This document shows positions 1 through 43,282 of a stretch of 43,282 nucleotides of DNA, one piece after another. The DNA lies in assembly GCA_964624735.1 (NCBI GenBank), contig CAZUXN010000002.1, forward strand, positions 1 through 43,282. Direction: 5' to 3'. Origin of the DNA: Candidatus Woesearchaeota archaeon (GTDB taxonomy: Archaea > Nanobdellota > Nanobdellia > Pacearchaeales > GW2011-AR1). Below the pieces are notes generated by a model that saw only the letters and a program-made list of their open reading frames with translations, did no database searches and had not been told where the DNA came from. The translations under genes and the position numbers were made by a program. Numbering within the stretch: position 1 is the stretch's first letter; the number at the start of each line of letters is the position of its first letter.

Positions 1-2101
1 CTTGAGGAGCTCTATAACCGGGATCCGGGTTAACCATAGAACCGTGCATAATTCTCCCATCTACCTTATTTGAAAGAGGATCAATCCCAACAATAGTAAC
101 GTTTCCTTTAGGGGTATCAGGAACAACCCAGTAGTCGCCGTTTGCAAACTGGCCGTACTGCACTGGCTCTGAAAATGTCCATGTTATTCCAAACTGTGAA
201 AGCTGGGTTGTGTAATTTCCTAAAACAACTTCGCAACTCCCATCAACACAAACATTTCCTCCTGAACATGTTCCGCAATTTAATGTTCCTCCGCAGCCAT
301 CAATCCAAGTTCCACATTCCTGACCTAAACTTGTACATGTTTCTGGAATACAATTTTCAACACAAACACTTGGCTCTTCTGAACAGCTCCATCCACTCTC
401 AACTTGACAAATATCTGAACATCCATCACCATTATTTAAATTATTATCATCACAATTTTCTCCTGTATCTATAATTCCATCACCGCATTCAATATTTATT
501 ATTTCAATACAGCTTCCTCCTTGCAATTCACAATTTCCTAAATCACAGACATCATCATTACATTCTAATTCATAATAATCATTACAATTAGTTATTCTAT
601 TATTGCATAATTCTTCTTGTGTTACACAATCTTCTCCTCCGAACATAGGGTCATAATAACAATCTGGACAATCATTTTTGCATTTATTATAATTACAATT
701 AATTCCCCAAAATAATTCACAATCAGAACAACTATTGCATGTTTTTTCTAAACATCCTGTTATTGAACAATATTCATAACTCTCACACAATTCATCATCA
801 GGAATATTTTCACATCCAATTAAACTACTACAGCTATCAACTGTGCAGGTTATTGAATCATCACAATTAATTAAACTTCCTTCACATATTCCATTTAAAC
901 ACTGATCATTTTCAGTGCATAAATCATTATCATTACATGAATTTAAATTATATTCTATAGTGCATTCTCCTAAACTGCAGATTTCATCTGTACATTTATT
1001 TCCATCATCAGGACAATCTTCATCTAATATACATGAACAAGAACTTATATCAAACTTACAAGAATCTGTTGTTTCATTGCAGTAAGGGACTGAACAAGTT
1101 AGATTATCATCTTCACAAATTTTTGGTTCTCCATAACATAATCCTCCTAAACAAACATCACTTATTGTGCAGAATAAGCTGTCATCACATATTGTATTAT
1201 CTAACTGATTTTCTTCACTGATATTTATCCATTCTGTTTCATTTATAAGATTATAATCACATGTGCTTAAAGTTAAATTACAATAATAATCTCTATTCTC
1301 TTGTTTTGTCTGATTTATTATTGTGCACGAGCTATTTATTATCTGAGAAACATTATACCAATTATCTTCTGAACACTGAGTATCATTTATGCATTGTAAG
1401 ATACAAATTCCTTCCTGACATGTTTTTTCTTCTTCACATTGACCACAGCTTCCACCACAACCATCATCTCCGCAGTTTTTATTTTCACAATTAGGTGTGC
1501 ATGTTGAAGGAGAAGAAGATGACCCTCCTCCATTACTTCCCCCACCTCCAGGACTAGGAGTTGTTTTTGTTGTGTCTAAACTAGGTGAATCAATTGCATC
1601 TCCTGATTCTGTTTTATATTCAAAAACAACACTTACTTCTTCTATATTTTTAAAATTCTCCAAACCTAAATCTTGTGCATTAATCTGATAATCATAATTT
1701 CCTTCAAACTGTTTTCCTAAAATCCAGTCTATAAATCCTTTTTTTAATGGAATACTTATCTCCTGAATTCCTTCATCTGTCTCATAACCATAATTATTTT
1801 TTCCTGACTTAAAAACAAACTTTATTTTTGTTATGTTTTTATTTAAACTTCCTCCTGCTAATTTTAAATAAGATAATCTTCCATCCTCGCTTAACAAAGC
1901 AGATTCTATATTTGCTCCAATGCCAAGAGTTTTTTCAGGAGTTTTGTAATACTGATAAAAAGAAAATAAAAGAAAAATTATAATAATCAAAAGAACAGAA
2001 ATAATTGGAACAACAAAGAATTTTTTGAGTTTCTGGCTTCTTTTGCTTTTCTCTAATTTTTTTAAAATATCTATAGTTTCTTCTTTTTTTGAATCTTGCA
2101 T
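1..2101 (-). CDS. Cysteine-rich membrane-anchored surface protein, N-terminal 700 codons (3' end lies beyond position 1)
   Basis: Own minus-strand translation from ATG 2101-2099: MQDSKKEETIDILKKLEKSKRSQKLKKFFVVPIISVLLIIIIFLLF (TM anchor), then a G/S/P linker (TPSPGGGGSNGGGSSSSPS). The frame stays open to position 1 and is packed with Cys motifs, incl. CGDGIIDTGENCDDNNLNNGDGCSDICQVESGWSC (Myxococcus-type Cys-rich repeat pattern). Absent from the ORF track because there is no stop in the window. Confidence 0.8.
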   Translation of the reverse strand, partial: MQDSKKEETIDILKKLEKSKRSQKLKKFFVVPIISVLLIIIIFLLFSFYQYYKTPEKTLGIGANIESALLSEDGRLSYLKLAGGSLNKNITKIKFVFKSGKNNYGYETDEGIQEISIPLKKGFIDWILGKQFEGNYDYQINAQDLGLENFKNIEEVSVVFEYKTESGDAIDSPSLDTTKTTPSPGGGGSNGGGSSSSPSTCTPNCENKNCGDDGCGGSCGQCEEEKTCQEGICILQCINDTQCSEDNWYNVSQIINSSCTIINQTKQENRDYYCNLTLSTCDYNLINETEWINISEENQLDNTICDDSLFCTISDVCLGGLCYGEPKICEDDNLTCSVPYCNETTDSCKFDISSCSCILDEDCPDDGNKCTDEICSLGECTIEYNLNSCNDNDLCTENDQCLNGICEGSLINCDDSITCTVDSCSSLIGCENIPDDELCESYEYCSITGCLEKTCNSCSDCELFWGINCNYNKCKNDCPDCYYDPMFGGEDCVTQEELCNNRITNCNDYYELECNDDVCDLGNCELQGGSCIEIINIECGDGIIDTGENCDDNNLNNGDGCSDICQVESGWSCSEEPSVCVENCIPETCTSLGQECGTWIDGCGGTLNCGTCSGGNVCVDGSCEVVLGNYTTQLSQFGITWTFSEPVQYGQFANGDYWVVPDTPKGNVTIVGIDPLSNKVDGRIMHGSMVNPDPGYRAPQ

Positions 2102-3349: not shown

Positions 3350-3673
3350 TTATATTTTCTGGTTGAGCCATTGTTTGATTGTGGCTTCTGGTTGGGCTCC
3401 TGTAAACTCATCTACTACTTTTCCGTCTTTGAAGAATTTTACAGAGGGGATAGACATTATTCCGTATTTGCTGGCTTGGGTTTGGTTTTTTTCTGTTTCG
3501 GCTTTTGCTAAGATTAGTTTGCCTTCATATTCTATTGCGATTTTTTCTAAGACTGGTCCGAGCATCATACACGGTCCACACCAGCTTGCCCAGAAGTCCA
3601 CAAGAACTGGGATTGTTTTTGATTTTTCTATTACTTCTTTTTCGAAGGTTTCGTCGGTTACATTGAGTTCCAT
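3350..3673 (-). CDS. trxA: Thioredoxin
   Basis: 107 aa with WCGPC active site (DFWASWCGPCMM) and thioredoxin-fold length. Confidence 0.9.
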   Translation of the reverse strand: MELNVTDETFEKEVIEKSKTIPVLVDFWASWCGPCMMLGPVLEKIAIEYEGKLILAKAETEKNQTQASKYGIMSIPSVKFFKDGKVVDEFTGAQPEATIKQWLNQKI

Positions 3674-3849
3674 TGTGTTGATAAATATTTATTTTTTATA
3701 AAGGTTTGGGAATTGCGCTAACTCGGAAGATATTTAATTGGGAGATTATTTATTTTATTATGGATTATAATGAAATTTGGAGGCAGATGTTTAGATTGGG
3801 AAGCTTACGCTAAAGCGATAGCTTGCTCAAAAATCTAAAGATTTTTTGG

Positions 3850-10521: not shown

Positions 10522-11328
10522 ATGGAAAAGGGAAAAAAATCGGAAGTCGGAAGTCGGAAGTCGGAAGGAATAATTGGGACGACAAAAAAGACTGAGGTTA
10601 AAGAAGTTAAGAAGCTGGATGATGTTAAAGATAGTCTTGAGAATAAGGCGGCATTGGCAGCACACTCTGGTGTACCATCTGAGGATGGCAAAGCTGAGGG
10701 GAAAAGTAGCTCACGGATTACACAGATTAATACGGATTCTGAAAAAGGAAAATGGAAATCTAAGAAGGACAAAAAAAAGGAAGTTGTTGAGTTGGAGAGG
10801 GAGTATGTTGTGCCGTTGAGGCGTGGTTTTTTGAATGTGCCAAAGCATAAGAGGGCGAAGAAGGCAGTTAAGGTTTTGAAAGAGTTTATGGTTCGACATA
10901 TGCGTGTTCGTGATGGGGATTTGAGAAAAGTGAAGATTGATGGTTATTTGAATAATGAAATTTGGTTTAGGGGGATTAAGAAACCGATGGGGAAAATTAA
11001 AGTCCGGGCTAGGAAGATTGATGGGATTGTTTATGTTGAATTGGCTGAGATTCCTGATGTTGTGAAGTTTGTGAAGTCGCGTGAAGAGAAGCGGAAGTTG
11101 GCAGCTGAGAAAATTAAGCCAAAGAAGGTTAAGGCTGAGAAGGAAGTTGTTGACGAAGATAAAGATAAGGATGGGGTTGATGATAAGAAGGAGGAGGCTG
11201 AGGATAAGAAGGCTGGGGCTGAGAAGGCGGCGAAGGTTGAGAAAGCGGTTTCTAAGGAGATGAAGCATACGGCTCAAGGGAAGCATTTGAAGAAGACGAT
11301 GCCGGTTCGGAAGGCGCTCAAAAAATAA
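10522..11328 (+). CDS. rpl31e: 50S ribosomal protein L31e (eL31) with ~90-aa N-terminal and K/E-rich C-terminal extensions
   Basis: Core EREYVVPLRRGFLNVPKHKRAKKAVKVLKEFMVRHMRV...IWFRGIKKPMGKIKVRA. There is no in-frame ATG between 10522 and the core, so the true start is uncertain (TTG near 10789 is possible). Confidence 0.75.
   Translation: MEKGKKSEVGSRKSEGIIGTTKKTEVKEVKKLDDVKDSLENKAALAAHSGVPSEDGKAEGKSSSRITQINTDSEKGKWKSKKDKKKEVVELEREYVVPLRRGFLNVPKHKRAKKAVKVLKEFMVRHMRVRDGDLRKVKIDGYLNNEIWFRGIKKPMGKIKVRARKIDGIVYVELAEIPDVVKFVKSREEKRKLAAEKIKPKKVKAEKEVVDEDKDKDGVDDKKEEAEDKKAGAEKAAKVEKAVSKEMKHTAQGKHLKKTMPVRKALKK
10540..10567. repeat. Four perfect TCGGAAG units
   Basis: TCGGAAGTCGGAAGTCGGAAGTCGGAAG read directly, 18 nt after the rpl31e ORF start. 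Confidence 0.9.
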
Positions 11329-11488: not shown

Positions 11489-12190
11489 ATGGAAATTGTT
11501 AGGAAGGAGTTGCAGGAGTTTGCTGATTCGGAGAAGGCGAAGATTTTACAGAGGTTTTTTAAGACTGGGTCGGGGCAGTATGGGGAAGGGGATGTTTTTT
11601 TGGGGGTGAGTGTGCCGAAGTTGAGGTGGATTGCTAGGAAGCATTGGGATAGGATTAATATGGATGAGATTGAGAAGATGTTGAGGTCTAATATTCATGA
11701 GAAGAGGTTGGTTGCGTTGTTGATTTTGATTGAATTATTTAAGGATAATCCTAAGGTGGTTTATAATTTTTATTTGAGGAATTTGAAAGGTGTTAATAAT
11801 TGGGATTTGGTTGATTTGTCGGCGCCTAAGATTATTGGGAGTTATTTATTGGATAAAAAAGATAGGGGAATTTTGGATGAATTGGCATCGTCGGAGAATT
11901 TGTGGGAAAAGCGGATTGCGATTGTTTCGACTTTTACCTTTATCCAGGATGGGGAATTTGATGATTGTTTGAGGATTGCTAAGGTTTTGCTTAAAGATAA
12001 ACATGATTTGATTCATAAGGCTGTTGGGTGGATGCTTCGTGAGGTTGGGAAGAGGGACGAGGATTTGTTGAGGGAGTTTTTGGCTAGGCATTATAATGAA
12101 ATGTCTAGGACAACTTTGAGGTATGCGATTGAGAGGTTTGGGGAGGATTTAAGAATTAAGTATTTGAAGGGTGACTATGAAAGACTTTAA
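11489..12190 (+). CDS. DNA alkylation repair protein (AlkD/AlkC-like HEAT-repeat family)
   Basis: 233 aa. ..AKILQRFFKTGSGQYGEGDVFLGV..NNWDLVDLSAPKIIG..WEKRIAIVSTF..HKAVGWMLREVGK matches the recalled DNA_alkylation family pattern. Confidence 0.7.
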   Translation: MEIVRKELQEFADSEKAKILQRFFKTGSGQYGEGDVFLGVSVPKLRWIARKHWDRINMDEIEKMLRSNIHEKRLVALLILIELFKDNPKVVYNFYLRNLKGVNNWDLVDLSAPKIIGSYLLDKKDRGILDELASSENLWEKRIAIVSTFTFIQDGEFDDCLRIAKVLLKDKHDLIHKAVGWMLREVGKRDEDLLREFLARHYNEMSRTTLRYAIERFGEDLRIKYLKGDYERL

Positions 12191-12317
12191 GGAATCGTTG
12201 AACTTTGGGTTGATTAATTTTGATAAGCCTTGCTCACTTTCAACTCTTCGTGGATTTAAATTTAGTCGAAGAGCTAAAAGTTCGGACCCGACGTCGTTTT
12301 CGGTTTCGGAGAAATGA
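12177..12317 (+). pseudogene. Ghost copy of the cbf5 5' end carrying a 57-nt hairpin-bearing insert
   Basis: 47-codon ORF MKDFKESLNFGLINFDKP[CSLSTLRGFKFSRRAKSSD]PTSFSVSEK*, versus real MKDIKELLDFGLINIDKPAGPTSFSVSEF. Its ATG overlaps the alkylation-repair gene stop in the same ATGA context as the real start. Insert has IR CTCTTCG (12244-12250) / CGAAGAG (12267-12273). Confidence 0.8.
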
Positions 12318-12367
12318 GTATATCGGAAGATTTAAATAATAATAGAGGCTAACTTGTTTAGGTAACA

Positions 12368-12435
12368 GGTATTGCTTCAGTCTTCGGACATACCGCTTAT
12401 GTGCTCCCGGTTCTGAGTCTTCGGACTAAGGCCGG
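12368..12435 (+). promoter_or_regulatory. Two tandem hairpins with identical AGTCTTCGGAC apex, 11 nt upstream of the NYN gene start
   Basis: GGTAT..GTC-TTCG-GAC-ATACC (12368-12394) and CCGGTTCTGAGTC-TTCG-GACTAAGGCCGG (12407-12435). The 11-nt exact repeat lies at 12379-12389 and 12416-12426. Confidence 0.55.
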
Positions 12436-12446
12436 TTTTATTTAAT

Positions 12447-13007
12447 ATGGTAAAGAGAATTAGTATTTTTATTGATGGAGCTAATTTTTATCATGGGTTG
12501 AAAACTATTAATTTTAGATACTCTGATATTTTTTTTGATTTTGAGAGGTTTGTGAAAAGGTTGGTTGGGAACAATGAATTGATTAATGTTTATTATTACA
12601 ATGCTCCGCTGAAGGAGAATTTGAATAAGTATGTTTATTGGAATCAGATGAAATTTTTTGGACGGCTTAGGAAGATTTCAAAATTTAAAGTTGTTTTATG
12701 CAAGAGGCAAAAGAGATTGGATGAGAATAAGGATGAGTATTATGTTACTAAGGGGGATGATATTCATTTGGCGTTGGATATGTTGTGTGATGCCTGTAAG
12801 GATAAATATGATAAAGTGATTTTGGTGAGTGGTGATGGAGATTTTGCTCCTTTGGTAAAATATGTTAAGGAAGAAGGAAAGGATGTTATTAATTATTGTT
12901 TTGAGGGCTCTGTTTCTCGGGATTTGTTAAAAGAGTTTTCTAATGAAAATAGATTTGTTATTGATAGAAAAGTAGTTAATAAGTTCTTTTTGAGGAATAG
13001 AAGATGA
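12447..13007 (+). CDS. NYN-domain (LabA/DUF88-like) putative RNase
   Basis: ISIFIDGANFYHGL...VILVSGDGDFAPLVKYVKEEGKDV matches the NYN/LabA signature. Its stop overlaps the cbf5 ATG (ATGA). Confidence 0.8.
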   Translation: MVKRISIFIDGANFYHGLKTINFRYSDIFFDFERFVKRLVGNNELINVYYYNAPLKENLNKYVYWNQMKFFGRLRKISKFKVVLCKRQKRLDENKDEYYVTKGDDIHLALDMLCDACKDKYDKVILVSGDGDFAPLVKYVKEEGKDVINYCFEGSVSRDLLKEFSNENRFVIDRKVVNKFFLRNRR

Positions 13008-13885
13008 AAGATATTAAGGAATTGTTAGATTTTGGCTTGATTAATATTGATAAGCCGGCGGGGCCGACGTCGTTTTCGGTGAGTGAGTTTATTCGGAGGC
13101 AACTTGGATTGTCTAAGACTTCGCATATGGGGACGCTTGACCCGAAGGTGACTGGGGTTTTGCCGATTACTTTGGGGCGGGCTTGTAAGTTGGCGGGATA
13201 TTTTATTAAGCATGATAAGAGTTATATTGGGGTTTTGGAGACGCATCGGGAGTGTGATATTGTTGAGTTGCAGAAGTTGATTGATGAGAATTTTGTTGGG
13301 AAGATTAAGCAAACGCCGCCGCATCGGTCGGCTGTGCTTCGAAAAGAAAGAACACGAGAGGTGTTCTTTTGGAAACTTTTCGAAGCGGGGTGTCGGGATT
13401 CGGGGTGTCGGGATGTCGGTGACTTGGGCAACAGAAGTAAGAGTTTTTTGTTTGAGTGTAAGGTTGAAGGTGGGACTTATATTAGGAAGTTGTGTTCGGA
13501 CTTGGGCGGGATGATTGGTGGGGCACATATGGGGGAATTGCGGAGAACTAAGGCTGGGATTTTTAATGAAGAGAAAATTTATTCGCTTTATGAATTTGAG
13601 AGGGCAGTTGAATCGTGGAAGAATGGGGATGATGGTTTATTGAAGGAAATGATTGTGTCGGCGGATGATGCGATTCGCGAGGTTTTGCCTGTGGTTGAAG
13701 TTGATAAGTCTGCTTTGGCGTCTTTGTATGTTGGTCGACCGTTGCTGAAGTTTAATGTTGTTGGTGGGGTTGATGTTGAGACTGGGGAGGTTTTTGCTTT
13801 GTTTTGTGGAGATGTTTTTGTTGGGGTTTATATGAGGAGTGGTGAGGAAGCTGTTTTTGGGCGTGTTGAGTTTGTGAAGAATTGA
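13004..13885 (+). CDS. cbf5: tRNA/rRNA pseudouridine synthase Cbf5 (TruB family) with PUA domain
   Basis: GLINIDKPAGPTSFSVSEFIRR..SHMGTLDPKVTGVLPI (catalytic Asp), GGTYIRKL, C-terminal PUA-like region. Confidence 0.9.
   Translation: MKDIKELLDFGLINIDKPAGPTSFSVSEFIRRQLGLSKTSHMGTLDPKVTGVLPITLGRACKLAGYFIKHDKSYIGVLETHRECDIVELQKLIDENFVGKIKQTPPHRSAVLRKERTREVFFWKLFEAGCRDSGCRDVGDLGNRSKSFLFECKVEGGTYIRKLCSDLGGMIGGAHMGELRRTKAGIFNEEKIYSLYEFERAVESWKNGDDGLLKEMIVSADDAIREVLPVVEVDKSALASLYVGRPLLKFNVVGGVDVETGEVFALFCGDVFVGVYMRSGEEAVFGRVEFVKN
13337..13428. repeat. 19-bp interrupted fold-back hairpin plus 7/8-nt-period TCGGG array inside cbf5
   Basis: CTTCGAAAAGAAAGAACAC (13337-13355), loop GAGAG, GTGTTCTTT (13361-13369), bulge TGGAAA, CTTTTCGAAG (13376-13385). 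Then CGGGGTG TCGGGAT TCGGGGTG TCGGGAT GTCGGTG ACTTGGG. Encodes ..EAGCRDSGCRDVGDLGN.., absent from M. jannaschii Cbf5 as recalled. Confidence 0.8.
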
Positions 13886-13938: not shown

Positions 13939-15978
13939 ATGGAAGAAGAAAATAAGGTGATTAATGAGGAGGTTATGGATCAAGATGAGTTTTTGATTGA
14001 GGCGAAGGATTTTTTTGAGGTTAATAAAAAGGAGATTGGGAAAGTTGCGAAGGGGGGAGAGAAGGTTGTTGAGATTGATTTTGATGTTTTGTCGGCGCAT
14101 TCACCTGGTTTGTCTGAGGTTTTGATTGATAGGCCGGAAGAGACGGTGCAGATGTTGGAGGTTGCGTTGGAGGAGTTGGAGTGGGCGCCGAATGATGCGA
14201 GGGTTCGGTTTAGTAGTATTTCGAAGGGGCAGGAACTTTATATTAGGAATATTAGGTCGAAATATTTAGGGAAGATGATTGGGATTGAGGGGATTGTGCG
14301 GAAAGCGTCGGAGGTTAGGCCGTTGGTGACAAATGCAAAATTTGAATGTCCGAGTTGTGGAACGATTATTTCGGTTTTGCAAATTGACAAAAAGTTCAAG
14401 GAGCCGACGAGGTGCTCGTGCGGACGGCGCGGTGGGTTTAAGGAGATTTCTAAGGATATGGTTGATGCGCAGGTTTTGACGATTGAGGAAGCGAGTGATA
14501 ATTTGCATGGGGGTGAACAACCGAAAAGGATGACGATTTTTTTGAAAGAGGATTTGGTTGATCCGAATATGGAAATGAGGACGACGCCGGGTTCGAGGGT
14601 TAAGATTATTGGGATTTTGAAAGAGATTGCTTTGTCTTCGTCTTCTGGTGCGATTTTGACGCGGTTTGATTTAGCGATTGAAGCAAATAATATTATTCCG
14701 TTGGAAGAAAGTTATGAGAATATTGATATTGACGAGGAGGACGAGAGGACGATTCATGAGTTGGCAGCGAGTCCTGATTTGATGAGGAAAATGATTGATA
14801 GTATTGCGCCGTCGATTTGGGGACATCGTGATGTGAAGGCGGCTTTGGCTTTTCAGTTGTTTGGTGGGGTGAAAAAAACGAGGAGTGATGGGACGAAAAT
14901 GAGGGGCGATATTCACGTTTTGTTGGTTGGGGACCCAGGGGTTGCGAAATCTGTGATGTTGGGATTTATTGCCGGGGTTGCGCCGAAAGCTCGGTATGTT
15001 TCTGGGAAGTCTTCGACCGGGGTTGGATTGACTGCGACTGTTGTTAAGGATGATTTACTGAGGGGTTGGAGTTTGGAAGCGGGAGCGATGGTTTTGGCGA
15101 ATAAGGGGATTGTTTGTATTGATGAGTTTGATAAGATGAACGAAGAGGACCGGTCGACGATGCATGAGGCGATGGAGCAACAGACGGTGACGATTTCGAA
15201 GGCGACGGTTCAGGCGACGTTGCGTTCGCAGACTTCAGTTTTGGCGGCGGCGAATCCAAAGTTTGGGCGGTTTGACCCGTTACAGTCAATTCCGAAACAG
15301 GTTAATTTGGCGCCGTCTTTGCTTTCGAGATTTGATGCGATTTTTATTATGAGGGATATTCCGAGCCGAAAGGATGACGAGGCGATTGCGACGCATGTTT
15401 TGTTGGAGCATAAGCAGGAAGCGAAGCACGATGTGATTGACAATGATTTGTTGAGGAAATATATTTCTTATGCGAGGCAAAAGTACGACCCGGTTTTGAC
15501 TGACGAGGCGGTTAAAGCAATGAAAGATTTTTATGTTGGGTTGAGAAATATGCCGCAGATTGGGGATGGGCCATCGAAACCGATTCCTATTGGGGCTCGG
15601 CAACTGGAGGCGATGGTACGGTTAGCGGAGGCGCATGCTCGGATGAGGTTAAGTAAGAAAGTTGAGGTTAGGGATGCGATTGAGGCGATTGATTTGGTTA
15701 AGAGTTATTTGATGCAGGTTGGGTATGATAAGGATACGAAAACTTTTGATGTTGATAGGATTACCGGGACTTCGGCGTCGTCGCGGAACAAGATTCATGT
15801 TGTGCAGGAGACAATTGAGAATTTGGAGAATAAGATGGGGAAGTTGATTCCGTTTGAGGAAATTACAAAGGCGTTGGCCGGGAAGATGAGCGAGACTGAT
15901 GTTGATGAAGTTGTTGGGAAGCTTTTGAAGAGTGGGGATTTATTTAGGCCGAGGCGAGGGTTTGTTCAACGGATGTAG
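13939..15978 (+). CDS. mcm: MCM replicative helicase
   Basis: Zn finger CPSCG..CSCG, Walker A GDPGVAKS, Walker B CIDEFDKM, arginine finger SRFD, C-terminal wHTH. 679 aa. Confidence 0.95.
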   Translation: MEEENKVINEEVMDQDEFLIEAKDFFEVNKKEIGKVAKGGEKVVEIDFDVLSAHSPGLSEVLIDRPEETVQMLEVALEELEWAPNDARVRFSSISKGQELYIRNIRSKYLGKMIGIEGIVRKASEVRPLVTNAKFECPSCGTIISVLQIDKKFKEPTRCSCGRRGGFKEISKDMVDAQVLTIEEASDNLHGGEQPKRMTIFLKEDLVDPNMEMRTTPGSRVKIIGILKEIALSSSSGAILTRFDLAIEANNIIPLEESYENIDIDEEDERTIHELAASPDLMRKMIDSIAPSIWGHRDVKAALAFQLFGGVKKTRSDGTKMRGDIHVLLVGDPGVAKSVMLGFIAGVAPKARYVSGKSSTGVGLTATVVKDDLLRGWSLEAGAMVLANKGIVCIDEFDKMNEEDRSTMHEAMEQQTVTISKATVQATLRSQTSVLAAANPKFGRFDPLQSIPKQVNLAPSLLSRFDAIFIMRDIPSRKDDEAIATHVLLEHKQEAKHDVIDNDLLRKYISYARQKYDPVLTDEAVKAMKDFYVGLRNMPQIGDGPSKPIPIGARQLEAMVRLAEAHARMRLSKKVEVRDAIEAIDLVKSYLMQVGYDKDTKTFDVDRITGTSASSRNKIHVVQETIENLENKMGKLIPFEEITKALAGKMSETDVDEVVGKLLKSGDLFRPRRGFVQRM

Positions 15979-24552: not shown

Positions 24553-24569
24553 CCTAGTCCCAGACTAGG
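24553..24569. other. Perfect 7-bp hairpin between the VR-like and TR-like repeats
   Basis: CCTAGTC-CCA-GACTAGG flanked by GGGG/T-run on the + strand (A-run/CCCC on the minus strand). Confidence 0.6.
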
Positions 24570-24627: not shown

Positions 24628-25335
24628 CTATTTTTTCGAGCCGACGCCTTCGGCGTGAACCAGCCCCACCCGGCCATCGCCGCCCGAATCCGCGAGATTG
24701 TCGTTCCAGACGATCAGGTTGCCGTCGCCCACATATAGCCTCGACAATCCGGTCCGTTTTGTAAAAACTTTAATCTTAGTACCATCAAACTCTATTTTTT
24801 TTTCGTTATTTGAATAGGCGAATCTTGGGTCTATGATTATTTGTGTTTCATCTGTTTCTACAAATTTGTATCCTTGTTTGGTATTTGCTTCGGCTATTCT
24901 TAATCCGATAAATCTTGCTGGGTTTTCTGAGTCGTAAGATATATTACCTTGGTTTTTTGCTATACCTGCTAAGTTAGTTGATGGTTGGGATACATCGTTT
25001 GAGTAAAGTATTGCTTCTTTTATGTCGGCGTATATTCCTTCGAATGGGTTTATATTGTTGGCTTGCCCATGGGCGATTATTCTTACTGCGTCTTCTAGGG
25101 ATAGGGTTGCTATATTTGTTCCTTTTAGGAGTTCTGTTGTTGCTATTACGAAGGGTAGACTTGAGCCTGTGGCGTTTTCTATATTGAATCCGGAGTTCAT
25201 GATTGTTTTGTATCCTGGTGAATCTTTACCAAATCTTCCGATTAGAAAATCATTTACCCTTTGATACATAGATAAATCTGCTTGTATAATTCTTAATCCA
25301 TTTGTTGCGGGGATATCTATGTTTAGGTTTGCCAT
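24628..25335 (-). CDS. Hypothetical protein; candidate former DGR target (VR-like C-terminus)
   Basis: 235 aa, no recognised fold. The last ~35 aa (SRLYVGDGNLIVWNDNLADSGGDGRVGLVH..) are encoded by a locally GC-rich stretch repeated at 24362-24434. Confidence 0.6.
   Translation of the reverse strand: MANLNIDIPATNGLRIIQADLSMYQRVNDFLIGRFGKDSPGYKTIMNSGFNIENATGSSLPFVIATTELLKGTNIATLSLEDAVRIIAHGQANNINPFEGIYADIKEAILYSNDVSQPSTNLAGIAKNQGNISYDSENPARFIGLRIAEANTKQGYKFVETDETQIIIDPRFAYSNNEKKIEFDGTKIKVFTKRTGLSRLYVGDGNLIVWNDNLADSGGDGRVGLVHAEGVGSKK
24676..24748 (-). repeat. Variable-repeat-like copy (inside the CDS 3' end)
   Basis: See 24362-24434. There are 14 mismatches, 7 of them at adenines of the RT-proximal copy. 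Confidence 0.6.
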
Positions 25336-28563: not shown

Positions 28564-28590
28564 GAAATATTCTTATAGTATGTGTTTTTG
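28564..28590 (+). repeat. Promoter-region repeat GAAATATTCTTATAGTATGTGTTTTTG (copy 1)
   Basis: Near-identical copy at 29987-30013 (one extra T). Both lie just upstream of an ATG (hydrolase and topA). Confidence 0.8.
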
Positions 28591-28592
28591 AT

Positions 28593-29348
28593 ATGGTGAT
28601 GACTGAGACGAAGGTATTTTTTAATGGTGAGATTGGGAGAATTTGTGGGGTTTTGCACAAGGTTGATGATAGTTCTAAGATTGTGATTGTTGTGCATGGT
28701 TTTAGTTCGAACAAGGAGACTGGGGCGGTGGATATTTCGAGGGAATTGAATAAGGTTGGGGTTAATGCTTTGAGGATAGATTTGGATAATCAGGGGGAGT
28801 CCGAGTTGGATTTTGAGACTGGGGCATGTATTCCTAATTATGTTAAGCAAGTTGAGGCGGCGATTAGTTATTGTAAGGGGTTGGGGTATAAGGAGATTAG
28901 CTTGATTGGAGGGAGTTATGGGGGATTGGTTGTTTTTGCTGTTGCTCTTAGTCATCCTGAAATCAAAAGAATGGTTTTGAGGGTTCCTGTTGTTGATCAC
29001 AAGGAGCATGTTATTTGGAAATATGGAGAAGAGAAGTTGGAAGAATTTAAGGAAAATGGTGTTGTTCTTTATTTTAATAAGAATAATGAAAAATTTGATG
29101 TAACGTTTGATTTTATTGAAAAATCTTATCCTTATTCTATGTATGATAGAGCGGGGGAAGTTCGGATTCCGACTTTGATTATTCAGGGGGATGAGGATGA
29201 AGCTGTGGAACCTGATGCGGCGAGAAGGGCGGTGAAGTTTTTTTCTAATGGTAAGTTGTATGTTGTTAAAGGGGCGGGGCATAATTTGGGAGTGGGTGGG
29301 GATTTTAGTGAGGGGTTGAAGGTGTTGGTTGATTTTTTTAGAGATTAG
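28593..29348 (+). CDS. Alpha/beta hydrolase
   Basis: VVHGFSSNK, nucleophile elbow GGSYGG, QGDEDE, GAGH. 251 aa. Confidence 0.7.
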   Translation: MVMTETKVFFNGEIGRICGVLHKVDDSSKIVIVVHGFSSNKETGAVDISRELNKVGVNALRIDLDNQGESELDFETGACIPNYVKQVEAAISYCKGLGYKEISLIGGSYGGLVVFAVALSHPEIKRMVLRVPVVDHKEHVIWKYGEEKLEEFKENGVVLYFNKNNEKFDVTFDFIEKSYPYSMYDRAGEVRIPTLIIQGDEDEAVEPDAARRAVKFFSNGKLYVVKGAGHNLGVGGDFSEGLKVLVDFFRD

Positions 29349-29384: not shown

Positions 29385-29519
29385 ATGGCGAAAGAGAAAA
29401 ATGCGACTTTGATAATTACGGAGAAGCCGGCGGCGGCGGAGAAGATAGCGGCGGCTTTGAGTAGTGCGACTGATGAGAAGATTACGAACAAGGATAAGGT
29501 TTCGTATTATGAATTTTAA
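29385..29519 (+). pseudogene. Ghost copy of the topA 5' end (44 codons plus stop)
   Basis: MAKEKNATLIITEKPAAAEKIAAALSSATDEKITNKDKVSYYEF*. Over 90% nt identity by hand alignment to 30022-30156. Confidence 0.9.
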
Positions 29520-29526
29520 AGATTTA

Positions 29527-29733
29527 TTAACAAATTAGGTTCTTTACGTTGACTTCTGAAAGAAAGTTCTTTGGGATTCTTTTGCTTACGTTCAAAAGTT
29601 CTATTCCTAGAATATTTCCTTTTTCGTCTAAATCTAAAATTGTGTTGTCGTCCATTTTTTTGTTTGATGCGAAGTCGCCACTAGAGAATTCTATGTATAC
29701 TGCGTCTGCGTCTTTGTCGAAGGTGATTTCCAT
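29527..29733 (-). CDS. DUF2283-family putative antitoxin
   Basis: MEITFDKDADAVYIEFSSG...DLDEKGNILGIELLNVSK is the typical DUF2283 pattern. Confidence 0.7.
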   Translation of the reverse strand: MEITFDKDADAVYIEFSSGDFASNKKMDDNTILDLDEKGNILGIELLNVSKRIPKNFLSEVNVKNLIC

Positions 29734-29942
29734 TATATATAGTAGGCAGTTATAACCTTTATATATTTATCTTTCTCGTATACGATTTCTATATTCGCCT
29801 TATCGATGTTTTTCTGAACGTAAAATTTTCCATCTTTTTTGGAGGTGTTTTCTGGATATTTAATGGAATTGATAACTTCATCTTTTGTTAATTTTCTTTT
29901 TTTCATTCTAAAGAGGGCGTGTTTGGTGAAAATGATTTCCAT
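29733..29942 (-). CDS. DUF4258-family putative toxin
   Basis: IFTKHALFRMKKRKLTKDEVINSI...IEIVYEKDKYIKVITAY. 1-nt overlap with its DUF2283 partner. Confidence 0.65.
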   Translation of the reverse strand: MEIIFTKHALFRMKKRKLTKDEVINSIKYPENTSKKDGKFYVQKNIDKANIEIVYEKDKYIKVITAYYI

Positions 29943-30021: not shown

Positions 30022-32211
30022 ATGGTTAAGAAGAATGCGACCTTGATTATTACAGAGAAACCGGCGGCGGCGGAGAAGATAGCGGCGGCTTTGAGTGGGG
30101 CGACTGATGAGAAGATTACGAATAAGGATAAGGTTTCGTATTATGAGTTTTACAAGGGAAGTCGGAGATATATTATTGGATGTGCGGTTGGGCATTTGTT
30201 TGGGATTCAGCAGATTGCGAAGAGGGGGCCGTTTCCTAATTTTGAGGTTGAGTGGAGGGCGTCTTATAATAAGAAGGGTGGGGCTTTTACTGAGAAGTAT
30301 TTGAGAGTTTTGAAAAAGTTGGCGAAGGAATGTGATGAGTTTATTGTTGCAACGGACTTTGATGTCGAGGGAGAGGTGATTGGTTGGAATGTTGTGCGGT
30401 TTGTTTGTGGAAAGAAGGATGCTAAAAGGATGAAGTTTTCTTTGTTGACGAAGGAGGCGTTGGATAAGTCGTTTGAGAATTTGTTGCCGACGCTTAATTG
30501 GGGCGCGGCGATTGCGGGGGAGACTCGACATTATATTGATTGGTTTTATGGGATTAATTTGTCGCGGGGTTTAATGAAGGCGTTGAGCTCGACTGGGACT
30601 TTTAGGATTTTGTCGATTGGTCGGGTTCAGGGGCCGGCGTTGAAGATTGTTGCGGACAGGGAGAAAGAGATTCGGGATTTTGAGTCGGAGCCGTATTGGA
30701 ATGTGTTTTTGCAGGTTCAGGATTCGAAGGGGCAGAGAGTTGAGGTGAAGCATCCGAAGGATATTTTTAAAGAGAGTGAGTTGTTGAAGTTTAAGCATTT
30801 GCAGGGGAAGAAAGGTGTTGCTTCTACGAAGATTAGTGACGATGAAGTTAAGGCGCCTGTTCCTTTTGATTTGACGACGCTGCAGACTGAGGCGTACAAG
30901 AATTGTGGGTTTACTCCGACGCAGACTTTGAAGGCGGCGCAGAATTTGTATTTGGCTGGGGCGATTTCGTATCCGAGGACTTCGAGCCAGAAGTATGATG
31001 CGTCGATTGGGTATGATAAGATTTTGAAGAATTTGAAGAAGTATACGACGGCTGTGAAATATGCGGTGAATTCGAAACCGACCGAGGGGACTAAGGTTGA
31101 CCCGGCGCATCCTGCGATTTATCCTACTGGTGAAGCTAAGAAAATTCCTGAGAGGGATAAGAAAATTTATGATTTGATTGTTAAGCGGTTTATTGCTTGT
31201 TTTTGTGATTCGGCTTTGGTTGAGAATAAGAGGATTAAGGTTGTTGTGAATGGTTTGGATTTTGGTGCGAAGGGAGTGCAAATTAAAGAGAAGGGTTGGA
31301 TGAATGTTTATCCGCATGGGACTAAGGAGTCGAAGGTTCCGACGATGAATGGGGATGTTGATGTTTTGGAGATTCGGACCGAGGAGAAAGAGACGAAACC
31401 GCCAAGAAGATATTCTGCTGCGTCGTTGGTTAAGGAGTTGGAGAAGAGGAATTTGGGGACGAAGGCGACTCGGGCGGCGATTGTTGAGACTTTGTATTCT
31501 CGGGGTTATGTTAGGGAGAAGAGTATTGAGGTTACGGAGTTGGGGATGAGAATGGAAGAAACGCTTGAGAAATATTCGCCGATTATTTTGGATGAGAAGC
31601 TTACTCGAGCTATGACTGAAGAATTAGAGAAGCTCGAGTCGGTATTCGGTATTCGGGGTGTCGGGGTGTCGGAGCTTGATAAGTTGAAGAAAGGTGAGAA
31701 GAAAATTTTGGATGAGGCGAAGGTTGTTGTGACGAAGATTGCCGAGGGGATGAGCGCTAATTTGGATAAGATGGGGAAGTCACTTGCTGATGCGAATGCG
31801 GTTGTTTGGGAGCAGGAGAAGGAGGCGAATACAATGAGCGAGTGTCCAGTTTGTCATAAAGGGAAGTTGAGGGTTATGTATGGGAAAAAATTTGGGAGAT
31901 ATTTTGTTTCGTGTGATGCTTATCCGGAGTGCAAGACGATTTATTCTTTGCCGCCGCGTGGTGCTATGCGCCCCGCGAGAAGACAGACGACAGAGGACAG
32001 AGGACAGAGGACAGAGGAGTTGGAGATGTGTGAGGAGTGTGGGTTTCCGAAGGTTGCGGCGTTCAAGAAAGGTGGGGCGCCTTGGAGGTTTTGTTTTAAT
32101 CCGGCGTGTCCGTCGAATGCGGAGTTGACGAAGAAGAAGGAAGAGTTTAAGGCGAAGATTGCGAGTGGTGAGATTAAGGTTGATGAGGATGGGAAGGTTG
32201 TTGAGAATTAG
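30022..32211 (+). CDS. topA: Type IA DNA topoisomerase
   Basis: TOPRIM (LIITEKPAAAEKIA, ATDFDVEGE), active-site region GAISYPRTSSQ, C-terminal Zn ribbons (CPVCHKG..CDAYPEC, CEECGFP..CFNPAC). Start moved to MVKKNATL. Confidence 0.9.
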   Translation: MVKKNATLIITEKPAAAEKIAAALSGATDEKITNKDKVSYYEFYKGSRRYIIGCAVGHLFGIQQIAKRGPFPNFEVEWRASYNKKGGAFTEKYLRVLKKLAKECDEFIVATDFDVEGEVIGWNVVRFVCGKKDAKRMKFSLLTKEALDKSFENLLPTLNWGAAIAGETRHYIDWFYGINLSRGLMKALSSTGTFRILSIGRVQGPALKIVADREKEIRDFESEPYWNVFLQVQDSKGQRVEVKHPKDIFKESELLKFKHLQGKKGVASTKISDDEVKAPVPFDLTTLQTEAYKNCGFTPTQTLKAAQNLYLAGAISYPRTSSQKYDASIGYDKILKNLKKYTTAVKYAVNSKPTEGTKVDPAHPAIYPTGEAKKIPERDKKIYDLIVKRFIACFCDSALVENKRIKVVVNGLDFGAKGVQIKEKGWMNVYPHGTKESKVPTMNGDVDVLEIRTEEKETKPPRRYSAASLVKELEKRNLGTKATRAAIVETLYSRGYVREKSIEVTELGMRMEETLEKYSPIILDEKLTRAMTEELEKLESVFGIRGVGVSELDKLKKGEKKILDEAKVVVTKIAEGMSANLDKMGKSLADANAVVWEQEKEANTMSECPVCHKGKLRVMYGKKFGRYFVSCDAYPECKTIYSLPPRGAMRPARRQTTEDRGQRTEELEMCEECGFPKVAAFKKGGAPWRFCFNPACPSNAELTKKKEEFKAKIASGEIKVDEDGKVVEN
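31603..31675. repeat. 9-bp inverted repeat plus 7/8-nt-period TCGG array inside topA
   Basis: ACTCGAGCT (31603-31611) / AGCTCGAGT (31631-31639), then TCGGTAT TCGGTAT TCGGGGTG TCGGGGTG TCGGAGC (31639-31675). Encodes ..ESVFGIRGVGVSE.. Confidence 0.75.
31977..32018. repeat. Six 7-nt units GAGAAGA CAGACGA CAGAGGA x4 inside topA
   Basis: 42 nt = 14 codons (..RRQTTEDRGQRTEE..) between two Zn-ribbon modules. The unit is nearly the same as in the lig array at 4641-4675. Confidence 0.85.
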
Positions 32212-40992: not shown

Positions 40993-43282
40993 TTTTATTT
41001 TGCTTGTGTTGGTTGTTGGGGTTGTGTCGGGAGGGGGTTTTGTTGGTGGGGGTGAGAGTAATTCAAATTTTAAGGTGATGGTTAAATGTGTGAGCAATCA
41101 AAATCATTTGCGAATTTTGTCTATGAAAACTCTTAACAACAATGTTAATATTATTACAAATAAAGCAAAGGCGAATCATGATATAAATATTTTAACTGTT
41201 AATGTAACACAATCTGAATATGAAGAATTGCTTAATGACCCTAATGTAATAACAGAGAAAATATATAATGTAGTCTCTTTAATGATAGAAGACACAAATA
41301 TAACTGGTGCGGATTTGTCATGGGATTTAAAGATTGGTAATCTTAATTTAACTGGAAACGGACAAGCCGTTTGCATTCTCGATACTGGAGTAGATTATAC
41401 TCACCCAGATTTGGGAGGATGCAATACTTCAGAATTTTTGGCGAGGAATTGTTTAAAAATTATTGGCGGTTGGGATTTTGGCGATAATGATTTTGACCCT
41501 TTGGACCATAACGGGCATGGAACTCATGTTGCAGGTATCGTCGCTGCTAATGGAAAAATAAAAGGAATGGCTCCAGATTCAAAAATTGTTGCGATTAAAG
41601 TTTTTGCTGATAATGGAGATTCAACAAGTAATAGTATAGTTGATGGAATAGACTGGTGCGTTAATCATTCTGCAGAGTTTAATATTTCGGTAATAAGCAT
41701 GAGTTTGGGATTTACTGACCAATTTGGAAATTCTTATTTAAACTCTACTTATTGTGATTCTGATTTTCCAAATACTTATGATGCTGTTCAGAGTGCAGTT
41801 GATAAAAATATTTCTGTCGTTGCTGCTTCGGGTAATGATGCAGCAAATGGATATCTTGGGGCTCCTGCCTGTTTGTCTAATGTAATTTCTGTCGGGGCAA
41901 CTTACGACGAGAATGTTTCTGGGACAATAAGTTATCCGAGTGTTTGTAACGATTCAAACTTCTTCCTTGATAATATAACTTGTTTTACAAATAGAAATTT
42001 CTTGCTCAAACTTTTGGCCCCAGGAGCTTTTATCAATTCAACAATGCCGACTTATGAAGTTTGTTTAACAAATAGTAGCTGCATTAATAGCACTAATACT
42101 TATTCAGAAAATTATGATGAAATGGTTGGCACTTCTATGGCGACGCCGATGGTGTCCGGAGCAATTGCAATTATTAAGCAGATGTTAAAATTGACCAGAC
42201 AAAGTGAAACTCCGTCGGAGATTGAAAATATTTTGTATAATACCGGCAAACAAATTTATGATTCTTCTTCTGGATTAAATTTCTCCCGAATAAATGTTTA
42301 TGATGCTATTTTGTCTCTTGATAATATTGCTCCGAATGTCACACTTGTGTTGCCGACGAATAATAAAATAAACATCACGAAAAATCAAACCTTTATTTGC
42401 AATGCGACGGACTGGCAGTTGGCGAATGTGACTTTTTATTTGTGGAATTCAAGTGGGGGGTTGGTTAATAGTTCAACTAATAATTTGAGCGGGACAGCGA
42501 ATGTAACGAGTTTTAGTGTGACCAATATGTCGTTTGGTAATTATGAATGGAACTGTTTCTGTGTTGATGCTATTGGGAATTCGGCTTATGCTTCTGTTAA
42601 TTTTAGTTTGACTATTGGTGGGATTTCGACGACGCTGTTGTCGCCTGAGGATAATAAGTATACTAATGTTAATGATACAAATTTTAGCTGTCAGATTGTT
42701 TCGGATTCTAATTATGAATTGGCGAATGTGACTTTTTATTTATGGAACTCGAGTTGGGGATTGATTAATAGTTCGACGAAGAATATTTCTGGATTTAGTA
42801 ATATGAGTATTTTTAATTATAGTTTTGTCGATGAAGGGAATTATTCGTGGAATTGTTTGGGAATGAATAATGCGTCGAACGAATCTTGGGGTGGTTCTAA
42901 TTATAGTATTGTTTTTGATGTGAGTGCGCCGAATTTAGTTTTGACTAGTTTACCGACGAGTGTTACTTCAAATTCTGTTTTAAAAAATTTTGGCTTTAAC
43001 ATTTCTGATGATAATCTTGATGGGTGTATTTTAATTATAAATAATGTAATTAGTCGGACTAATTCTTCGATGAATATTTCTTTGTCTCAATCTTTTAGCC
43101 AAACTTTTACGCCGGGAACTTATAATTGGAAAATTAATTGCAGTGATTTTGCTGGTAATGTAAATTCTTCTGGCGAACATAGTTTTGTTATTACAGCTGT
43201 TCCAAGTCTTATTTCGAATGGTTCTCCTGGTGGCGGTAGTTCGGCAAGTATTTCTTCGACGCCAAAAACTTATGAGATTGGG
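40973..43282 (+). CDS. Subtilisin-like (S8) serine protease with tandem ~100-aa N-glycosylation-rich repeat domains; 3' end beyond the window
   Basis: Own translation: MRKLWVSFILLVLVVGVVSG (signal), Asp ILDTGVDYTHPDL, His HGTHVAG, Ser GTSMATPMVSG. Open for 770 codons to 43282. Absent from the ORF track (no stop). 32-nt near-exact repeat at 42419 and 42719. Confidence 0.85.
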   Translation, partial: MRKLWVSFILLVLVVGVVSGGGFVGGGESNSNFKVMVKCVSNQNHLRILSMKTLNNNVNIITNKAKANHDINILTVNVTQSEYEELLNDPNVITEKIYNVVSLMIEDTNITGADLSWDLKIGNLNLTGNGQAVCILDTGVDYTHPDLGGCNTSEFLARNCLKIIGGWDFGDNDFDPLDHNGHGTHVAGIVAANGKIKGMAPDSKIVAIKVFADNGDSTSNSIVDGIDWCVNHSAEFNISVISMSLGFTDQFGNSYLNSTYCDSDFPNTYDAVQSAVDKNISVVAASGNDAANGYLGAPACLSNVISVGATYDENVSGTISYPSVCNDSNFFLDNITCFTNRNFLLKLLAPGAFINSTMPTYEVCLTNSSCINSTNTYSENYDEMVGTSMATPMVSGAIAIIKQMLKLTRQSETPSEIENILYNTGKQIYDSSSGLNFSRINVYDAILSLDNIAPNVTLVLPTNNKINITKNQTFICNATDWQLANVTFYLWNSSGGLVNSSTNNLSGTANVTSFSVTNMSFGNYEWNCFCVDAIGNSAYASVNFSLTIGGISTTLLSPEDNKYTNVNDTNFSCQIVSDSNYELANVTFYLWNSSWGLINSSTKNISGFSNMSIFNYSFVDEGNYSWNCLGMNNASNESWGGSNYSIVFDVSAPNLVLTSLPTSVTSNSVLKNFGFNISDDNLDGCILIINNVISRTNSSMNISLSQSFSQTFTPGTYNWKINCSDFAGNVNSSGEHSFVITAVPSLISNGSPGGGSSASISSTPKTYEIG

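Follow-up and report, generated by a model that had tools for sequence, protein, structure and literature searches.

NYN nuclease cassette with a structured leader RNA inserted within a duplicated cbf5 start in a DPANN archaeon

Organization of the cbf5 locus

We examined a 43,282-nucleotide stretch of DNA (contig CAZUXN010000002.1 of assembly GCA_964624735.1, from a Candidatus Woesearchaeota archaeon; hereafter the window), in which a compact accessory module encoding a NYN nuclease is inserted after codon 28 of cbf5, the gene for the H/ACA pseudouridine synthase subunit. The module is flanked on either side by a copy of the first 84 nt of the gene. The best protein matches of the window are to Pacearchaeota and Nanoarchaeota, placing it in a DPANN archaeon. 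The window is core chromosome, encoding DNA ligase, TBP, ribosomal proteins S19e and L31e, Cbf5, MCM, aRF1, topoisomerase, RadA, and Rad50/Mre11.

The locus consists, in order, of an AlkD-like gene, a remnant of the cbf5 start (the ghost), 129 nt of noncoding DNA, the NYN gene, cbf5, and MCM. The upstream neighbor (11489–12190, plus strand) encodes a DNA alkylation repair protein of the AlkD-like HEAT-repeat family (PF08713, E 4.7e-69). The ghost (12177–12317, plus strand) is a 46-codon open reading frame (ORF) that directly repeats the start of cbf5 and contains a 51-nt in-frame hairpin insert (12231–12281, plus strand), apparent from the offset between the repeat blocks. The cassette proper is ~690 nt long and is made up of a promoter with a B recognition element (BRE)-like sequence and a TATA box (12324–12340), an 83-nt leader RNA (12358–12440), and the NYN/LabA-type nuclease ORF (12447–13007; 186 aa), all on the plus strand. 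Intact cbf5 (13004–13885, plus strand; 293 aa) begins with the right-hand copy of the duplicated target, codons 1–28 (13004–13087), and is followed by MCM (13939–15978).

Duplication of the cbf5 start

A repeat search of the window found two blocks common to the ghost and the real gene, one of 53 nt (12177–12229 and 13004–13056, 85% identical) and one of 22 nt (12283–12304 and 13059–13080, 91% identical). Their spacings, 827 and 776 nt, leave the ghost with 51 net extra bases. The local alignment of the ghost and real copy has a score of 66, compared to a maximum of 33 in the cross-locus null; the duplication of the cbf5 start is real and far above chance. In the real gene, the duplicated target (codons 1–28) takes up 84 nt; its counterpart in the ghost (12177–12311) extends over 135 nt. 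A preliminary description of this DNA had proposed that a NYN cassette was inserted in the 5' end of cbf5 with duplication of the target. The direct repeats, along with the empty and filled sites of relatives described below, bear this out, while the ~110 nt given for the duplication is replaced by the two lengths above.

The cbf5-derived parts of the ghost (12177–12230 and 12282–12311) are followed by AAA TGA. The ghost ORF translates as MKDFKESLNFGLINFDKP[CSLSTLRGFKFSRRAKS]SDPTSFSVSEK*, and the N-terminus of intact Cbf5 is MKDIKELLDFGLINIDKPAGPTSFSVSE. The two codons 3' of the hairpin insert are altered in the ghost, from AG to SD. The preliminary description had a 57-nt hairpin segment replacing two codons; the in-frame insert stands, and its size of 51 nt plus two altered codons is an equivalent way of describing it.

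The ghost sits directly downstream of the AlkD-like gene, that is, in the native position of cbf5, and a candidate TATA-like sequence, ATTTAAGA, is found ~26 nt upstream of its ATG. The AlkD-like ORF is in a different frame and overlaps the ghost by 14 nt, ending with a TAA stop at 12188–12190. The ATGA stop/start overlap that had been attributed to these two genes is therefore absent. The upstream neighbor differs in each genome (AlkD-like in the window, Adenine_glyco in L004, and DUF8412/OmdA in L088, where L numbers denote individual loci). At the other end of the cassette, cbf5 does restart at the NYN stop codon as described, with TGA and ATG overlapping as ATGA (13004–13007).

Empty and filled sites in relatives

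Two relatives lack the NYN gene. The order in L092 is Adenine_glyco, 36 nt, cbf5, and MCM (Cbf5 77% identical), and in L007 it is NosD on the minus strand, cbf5, and MCM (Cbf5 74% identical). Both have a single cbf5 start and no ghost, so that the duplicated segment does not occur in these relatives without NYN. Three independent assemblies (L004, L005, and L006) have Adenine_glyco, ghost, NYN, and cbf5. Their Adenine_glyco gene, which encodes an alkylation-repair glycosylase, is orthologous to that of L092. An alkylation-repair gene directly before cbf5 had been proposed as the mark of an empty site, and L092 and L004 provide the empty and filled states of such a site. As the filled sites come from independent assemblies (JGI, ENA, and Logan), the structure is not an assembly artifact. 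Contigs L089–91, in which NYN is followed by cbf5, all break exactly at the cassette promoter, which would be the expected effect of the repeat on assembly.

The closest relative is L088, whose NYN protein is 83% identical. In the window, L004, and L088, the ghost ends at codon 28 (GTTTCGGAG, which is real-gene sequence in L092), and a homologous spacer of 11–13 nt separates this end from the BRE. The same ghost end and homologous spacer therefore point to one ancestral insertion event. These sequence comparisons support an old, clade-shared insertion that took place in an ancestor of a small Pacearchaeota/Nanoarchaeota clade rather than privately in this bin. Bootstrap values in the NYN tree are 13–60% and permit no conclusion on the monophyly of the cbf5-linked copies.

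The cbf5-derived segments of the ghost are 73–85% identical between the window and L088, and the differences are chiefly nonsynonymous (~10 nonsynonymous and 3 synonymous in the ghost peptide, counted by eye). There is thus no selection on the ghost peptide. The ghost and real copy of L088 have in common a lineage-specific AATTTCAGTTTG and a stretch of 32 identical nt, which indicates gene conversion between the two cbf5 starts.

Hairpin insert in the ghost

The 51-nt insert comprises 17 codons and has an inverted repeat with a perfect 7-bp core (CTCTTCG/CGAAGAG) in 15-nt arms (12236–12250 and 12267–12281) that are 87% complementary. In the predicted hairpin, a symmetric 3x3 internal loop separates a 5-bp from a 7-bp stem, and the hairpin loop contains GATTTAAAT. 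Folded in isolation, the RNA of the insert is not unusually stable (z = +0.68). The ghost of L004 lacks the insert and the ghost of L088 has it, which makes the insert a second, later event in the lineage of the window and L088 and agrees with the preliminary description that the locus had been hit at least twice.

Between the window and L088, 47 of the 51 positions of the insert are identical (92%), as compared to 21 of 35 four-fold sites in NYN (60%; Fisher p = 8e-4). The leader RNA is 92% identical in the same comparison, and the spacers called nonfunctional are 56–64% identical. Gene conversion from the real copy cannot preserve the insert, since the real copy lacks it. These sequences suggest that the hairpin insert is inherited and under constraint, and hence probably functional; a point against this is that the argument draws on two sequences only. 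The ghost is more than dead sequence, its insert being as conserved as the leader RNA. The insert may act as an insulator or terminator, or as a protein-binding palindrome upstream of the cassette promoter.

No second copy of the insert was found in the window with up to 3 mismatches, and none in ~170 fetched loci except in the L088 ghost. The hairpin belongs to no Rfam family (weak matches with E 1–9 are noise). Derivation of the insert from the cassette promoter was considered and rejected, as the likeness is confined to GATTTAAAT and 11% of random windows score equally.

Among archaeal protein genes, cbf5 is the classic case of one with a spliced intron, which in Crenarchaeota is of the bulge-helix-bulge (BHB) type (PMC2738675). 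The gene described here could accordingly be split or intron-containing, with the ghost as its first exon and either the NYN module or the 51-nt hairpin as an RNA-level intron, and the insert is indeed in frame and forms a hairpin. However, the downstream cbf5 copy is complete and has its own start codon, which makes splicing unnecessary, while the ghost ends in a stop and its peptide is not conserved as a protein. In addition, the symmetric 3x3 internal loop differs from the two 3-nt bulges separated by 4 bp of a BHB. For want of a BHB motif and with a complete downstream cbf5, we rejected the split-gene explanation, which is scarcely credible. The same gene is interrupted in Crenarchaeota, but there at the RNA level and in a single-copy gene; here the insertion is at the DNA level, with a duplication, and leaves an uninterrupted copy.

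NYN nuclease

The NYN ORF matches PF01936 over residues 4–163 (E 1.2e-23; 84.7 bits, cut-off 24.2), and D10, D104/D105, D130, and D132 are invariant in 21 NYN homologs. The AlphaFold2 (AF2) model has a pLDDT of 87.9, and a Foldseek search with this model retrieved 2qip (E 1e-10, TM 0.71–0.81) and the NYN domain of MARF1 (E 6e-5). The PADLOC matches are NYN and HEC-09. By its profile, aspartates, and predicted fold, the ORF is a bona fide NYN/LabA nuclease. It shares the sequence match, predicted fold, and catalytic aspartates with known LabA/NYN nucleases (PF01936, 2qip, MARF1 NYN, and HEC-09). Unlike these, it is a stand-alone protein of 186 aa without OST-HTH/LOTUS or other domains, and in DPANN archaea its pairing with a conserved 5' leader RNA is strict.

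NYN cassettes share islands and an insertion mode with ParE and DUF4258/DUF2283 pairs (described below), and for this reason the module may be a self-contained, toxin-antitoxin-like selfish or defense gene. A role in defense is disfavored by HEC-09, the nearest PADLOC family and itself a defense candidate, which gave no phage defense in the sole test reported.

L177 has an IS200/IS605-type Y1 transposase gene (366–806, minus strand) upstream of the NYN cassette and divergent from it, and a Y1 transposase fragment is found upstream of NYN in L009 (2230–2412). Such a gene adjoins NYN in only these 1–2 of ~100 loci, and the linkage was judged incidental. On a Saccharibacteria contig (L086, 1456–4993), a distant NYN homolog (28% identical) is located within an array of ORFs parted by four copies of a GC-rich repeat of 67–70 nt (CAGGTTCTAACATCCCTCCAGAGGCCCTCCAGAGGCGGGC...). 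This may be an attC-like or repetitive extragenic palindrome (REP)-like array in a bacterium of the candidate phyla radiation (CPR).

Cassette promoter and leader RNA

NYN homologs were fetched from 80 species-representative genomes and from metagenome loci; a scan of metagenome contigs gave few close relatives. The promoter of the cassette has a BRE-like CGGAAG and a TATA box, ATTTAAATAAT. The family consensus, cGAAAGaCTTAAATAAt, is conserved at the same distance upstream in nearly every NYN homolog, and we take it to be an archaeal BRE/TATA element from general knowledge of archaeal promoters.

Across the homologs, a leader RNA of 80–83 nt is located ~25 nt downstream of the BRE/TATA and ends 6–12 nt before the NYN ATG (6 nt in the window). 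It is a single unit without internal tandem repeats. In the predicted structure, the loop of stem P1 pairs with a downstream strand to form an H-type pseudoknot. The structure also includes a UUCG mini-hairpin, a small GCAAG/UUAUG hairpin, and a bulged hairpin at the end, after which comes UUUUAUU. When tested on 32 sequences, this structure has 98.5% of cells paired, and compensatory changes are seen at 11 of its pairs. These values are not attained by any of 500 shuffles, and slid controls are 31–43% paired. The predicted leader structure is strongly supported by covariation. A covariance model of the leader scores 73.7 bits at this locus, its sole match in the window, and yields one match per locus, directly 5' of NYN and on the same strand, at ~75 loci and nowhere else. 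Searches of Rfam 15 gave no family for the leader at the gathering threshold or at E up to 10, and none for 20 related loci. More distant NYN genes retain no more than a TATA box, along with a strong hairpin and a U-tract that immediately precede the ATG; the second NYN paralog of the window belongs to this group.

The leader RNA would most likely act in cis on NYN expression, either through attenuation or by serving the nuclease as a target for autoregulation. A terminator scan, which is bacterial in type and uninformative for an archaeon, did not flag the leader hairpin. We found no published description of a strict pairing of a NYN nuclease with a pseudoknotted leader RNA. A new, well-supported structured RNA linked to a widespread DPANN nuclease family provides a handle on the role of stand-alone LabA/NYN proteins.

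The order of parts in the cassette is also that of type III toxin-antitoxin (ToxIN-like) systems, which have a promoter, a structured antitoxin RNA of tandem repeats, a hairpin with a U-tract, and a ribonuclease ORF. Both are small, sporadic, and found in multiple contexts. The module here differs in having a single pseudoknotted leader and a NYN/PIN-like rather than ToxN-like nuclease.

Some loci depart from the common arrangement. In L008, the leader RNA is 160 nt upstream of the NYN ORF rather than ~8 nt, and the NYN gene is located between low-complexity arrays of CAACCGT/CAACTGT-type heptamers (2597–2716 and 3564–3680). L014, L018, L027, L042, L043, and L173 have a common element ~40–130 nt upstream of the NYN TATA box, consisting of GCCATCCCATTAAATTTGAGGTGCGCGCCC, a hairpin (CTTCTTTCTT/AAGAAAGAAG), and then ATGAAATAATCTTTTTTGG. 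The element is repeated downstream of NYN in L018. It is neither a tRNA nor an Rfam family, and may be an extended cassette end or a conserved neighboring noncoding gene.

Intact cbf5 and its expression

The intact Cbf5 protein has TruB_N (E 1.9e-18) and TruB_C_2 (E 4.2e-15) domains, both above threshold, and is 64–80% identical to Cbf5 of Pacearchaeota/Nanoarchaeota, with end-to-end alignment. H41-MGTLDPKVTG is invariant in 13 Cbf5 homologs, and the GTLDP catalytic motif is kept. No PUA domain was detected in it by Pfam.

The native upstream position now serves the ghost, and intact cbf5 would have to be transcribed through or from the cassette. Transcripts from the NYN promoter might read through the leader hairpin and U-tract into cbf5. 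The conserved VNKFF codons, ~25 nt ahead of the cbf5 ATG, include a TATA-like TTAATAAG that could supply an additional promoter, and translation of NYN and cbf5 is possibly coupled via the ATGA overlap. The preliminary description had likewise raised transcription of cbf5 from within the cassette. Expression of cbf5 may thus be cassette dependent, and in that case an essential enzyme of RNA modification has come to rely on a selfish module.

The cbf5 ORF contains a strong hairpin (13337–13420; GCUUCGAAAAGAAAGAACAC...GUGUUCUUU...CUUUUCGAAGC; z = -2.8 for the region), after which a tandem GGGGTGTCGGGAT, present twice, encodes CRDSGCRDVG. A 27-nt, 93% copy of the G-rich cbf5 motif is found within the topoisomerase gene (31646–31672). 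Cbf5 proteins of the clade have variable in-frame insertions after WKLLEA and after AGIFxE, and range in length from 277 to 333 aa.

Recurrence at other NYN loci

Sequence upstream of the cassette promoter was screened for repeats of sequence downstream of the NYN stop, with a cross-locus null. Strong flanking direct repeats occur within 400 nt in 11–12 of 72 distinct loci (scores 47–133, null maximum 33), and a wider search found them in ~15 of 81 NYN loci. The repeats are 35–130 nt in length and are built from the ends of adjoining genes, such as the 3' end of the upstream gene in L040, the start and promoter of a divergent gene in L039, and a flippase start in L012. Repeated starts may also form arrays. 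In L001, the start of hypA (5' untranslated region plus 18 codons, 88 nt) occurs 3–4 times, its copies interspersed with the NYN cassette, a NUDIX gene, and another ORF, and in L075 a glycosyltransferase start occurs five times and separates NYN genes and other ORFs. In L175, NYN overlaps hypA directly without a ghost, a donor-like state. The clade of NYN proteins with at least 70% identity occupies at least six genomic contexts, and no tRNA genes, which were looked for as integration targets, adjoin 20 NYN loci.

Toxin-antitoxin cassettes are typical integron cargo, and arrays of single-gene cassettes with 45–130-nt repeats could in principle have been assembled by an IntI-type integrase acting at attC/attI sites. 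Integrons and integrase-less attC clusters (CALINs) have been reported in Nanoarchaeota (PMC9668308), and share with the present loci the compact single-gene arrays, repeats of ~50–130 nt, toxin-antitoxin-like cargo, and DPANN hosts. The repeats here, however, are not attC sites but copies of the coding ends of core genes (cbf5, hypA, glycosyltransferase, MCM, and topoisomerase). For the cbf5 repeat, the fold of the bottom strand does not surpass that of shuffled sequences (z = -0.74), the cassettes occur in both orientations with their own promoters, and no tyrosine recombinase (IntI) is found among the scanned ORFs of the window. An integron-like array is very improbable, and it was rejected for the cbf5 repeat, which is coding sequence without an attC-like single-strand fold.

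Other ghost-flanked islands in the window

A second island lies between MCM and an OB-fold gene (15804–19364). Its order is ORF96, a ParE-like pair, adjacent OB-5' and MCM-3' ghosts, a ParE pair, another OB-5' ghost, the NYN paralog, and the OB-fold gene. The first 5' ghost of the OB gene (promoter plus start, 17136–17234) abuts the 3' ghost of MCM (17227–17362, 90.6% over 138 nt), and the two join at a GGAG microhomology. The second ParE toxin-antitoxin pair (17367–17838, minus strand) comes next, followed by the second 5' ghost of the OB gene (promoter plus start, 17862–18013) and the NYN paralog (18017–18589, minus strand). The two ParE pairs around the OB-5'/MCM-3' junction are unrelated to each other. 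The distance from MCM to the OB-fold gene is 2.7 kb in the window, and cassette-free relatives have only one small unannotated ORF (54 or 108 aa) between these genes.

A third case involves topoisomerase (topA). A ghost of its start, 44 codons in length (29385–29519), is 93% identical over 124 nt to 30029–30152, and a DUF2283/DUF4258 pair (29527–29942, minus strand) is located between the ghost and the intact gene. Ghost-flanked insertion is not specific to NYN, but is a recurrent entry mode of small accessory cassettes at core genes in this lineage. An extra 49-nt partial copy of the topoisomerase start (28564–28612) is also found between the metallophosphoesterase and alpha/beta-hydrolase genes.

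Mechanism of insertion

We favor, with middling confidence, a Campbell-type integration of circularized fragments followed by gene conversion between the repeats. A fragment with the cassette and the adjoining cbf5 start would be circularized by an illegitimate, microhomology-type join, and the circle would enter a cassette-free cbf5 by one homologous crossover in the highly conserved 5' end. Such a crossover necessarily leaves the native upstream region attached to a truncated copy, with the cassette and the full-length gene after it. The two copies could later exchange sequence by gene conversion, or recombine and excise the cassette again. The Campbell-type model is suggested by the ghost and real copy themselves, as the truncated copy keeps the native upstream context and it is the full copy to which the cassette is joined. 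In the MCM/OB-fold island, the OB-5' ghost precedes the MCM-3' ghost, the reverse of the chromosomal order, which therefore points to a circularized [MCM-3' - cassette - OB-5'] fragment rather than a staggered cut. A diverged tandem duplication is ruled out by the unrelated ParE pairs around this junction. RadA and Rad50/Mre11 are encoded in the window, and no integrase, transposase, recombinase, or reverse transcriptase was found among the ~35 ORFs scanned in this 43-kb contig.

Several points weigh against Campbell-type integration. No circular form, no ghost-less donor allele with NYN before cbf5, and no population polymorphic for empty and filled sites was seen. A homology of 84 nt, or of 35–45 nt at some loci, is short for a RadA-dependent crossover, and the model leaves the first adjacency of cassette and target unexplained. 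The chief objection is that the ends of the repeats are clustered. Of 12 repeat-bearing loci, 7 have a left repeat that ends 0–20 nt upstream of the BRE/TATA, and 8 have a right repeat that starts between -20 and +18 nt from the NYN stop, a pattern closer to that of an element with defined ends than to that of random fragments. Clustered ends could also be produced by compact genomes along with selection for an intact promoter.

These boundaries, so tightly clustered in independent events, could alternatively mark the defined ends of a mobile NYN element that is inserted by dedicated machinery. This machinery, which might be a factor in trans or the NYN nuclease together with its RNA, would make wide staggered cuts, and their fill-in would give duplications of 35–130 nt. 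Such an element would duplicate different targets at different loci and, in arrays, the same gene start once per inserted cassette, as observed, and the strict pairing of RNA and nuclease would fit as well. We nonetheless consider it rather unlikely. No terminal inverted repeats or conserved end motif were found, and neither the cassette nor the window has a transposase or integrase. Toxin-antitoxin pairs and a NUDIX gene, which have no NYN or RNA, are equally ghost-flanked, and a staggered cut cannot produce the order of the OB-5' and MCM-3' ghosts. The NYN copies within one genome are divergent paralogs, not recent transposition copies. A classical transposon or insertion sequence was rejected, as the cassette has the NYN ORF only, lacks terminal inverted repeats, and is flanked by duplications of 35–130 nt.

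The GGAG microhomology at the OB/MCM ghost join and the variable duplication lengths might instead reflect local rearrangement without a mobile intermediate, either by template switching (microhomology-mediated break-induced replication), in which a cassette from another place is copied into cbf5 and re-entry occurs upstream of the exit point, or by tandem duplication of a [NYN + cbf5 start] unit with subsequent loss of one NYN. No recombinase would be necessary, and L175, with NYN directly upstream of hypA and no ghost, could be the state before duplication. Duplication and loss, however, requires a second exact deletion at each of ~15 loci. The MCM/OB units contain unrelated ParE pairs, yet the MCM ghost is 90.6% identical to its source, and the occurrence of NYN genes of 70–83% identity in at least six contexts of different genomes implies that they were transferred between genomes or sites. 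Local rearrangement is quite unlikely in light of these findings.

Returning to Campbell-type integration, the product of insertion-duplication by suicide vectors and by elements integrating at gene ends has an identical architecture, with repeats that correspond to the shared homology. Reversibility by recombination between repeats, and tandem arrays after repeated events, are likewise shared. The present case is distinguished in being natural and recurrent, with single-gene inserts of 0.5–1.8 kb and without a replicon or integrase, the circle being deduced only. Archaeal integrative elements of the SSV and pTN3 types are several kb or larger, with a site-specific integrase and one fixed att sequence. 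They have in common with the present loci direct repeats of 40–110 nt derived from the target, an intact target gene, and stacked partial copies, and differ from them in that here the targets are many and unrelated and there is no integrase.

The nuclease family is known, and the insertion chemistry is probably ordinary homologous recombination. A bolder interpretation, to which we give little credence, is an integrase-free cassette system of DPANN archaea, with the conserved ends of essential genes (cbf5, MCM, topoisomerase, and hypA) as landing pads that are duplicated at every capture, and with NYN and its leader RNA as an active part. The RNA-associated nuclease would then make or target breaks, or an RNA-controlled addiction module would take over the expression of essential genes, suggestions that we hold to be just as doubtful. 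If true, these cassettes would represent a mobile element of a new class, not a side effect of homologous recombination.

We found no published description of recurrent ghost-flanked insertion into the ends of essential genes, of arrays on duplicated gene starts, or of a constrained hairpin inside a ghost. Reduced and tightly packed genomes can take selfish or accessory genes inside essential genes that nonetheless survive, as the interrupted end is duplicated. Ghost starts, arrays, and reversed junctions are traces of such events that can be searched for systematically. Ghosts break assemblies and yield spurious short ORFs, and their recognition improves the annotation of DPANN genomes.

Other features of the window

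Ribosomal protein L31e (10522–11328) has a Lys/Glu-rich N-terminal extension of ~90 aa, and its Pfam domain covers residues 92–163 of 268 only. At 2487–2612, Rfam places a tRNA (51.3 bits) whose span of 126 nt implies a long intron. No tRNA in the window is called by ARAGORN. An RT-16 RNA (RF03019, 83.8 bits) is located at 24434–24569 on the minus strand and is surrounded by a 64-nt direct repeat (24371–24434 and 24685–24748, 86%). The adjoining ORFs (24065–24433 and 24628–25335, minus strand) have no Pfam match, and no reverse transcriptase occurs among the scanned ORFs of the window. Near the end of the window, a 66-nt direct repeat (42419–42484 and 42719–42784) is 86% identical, with its copies 300 nt apart.

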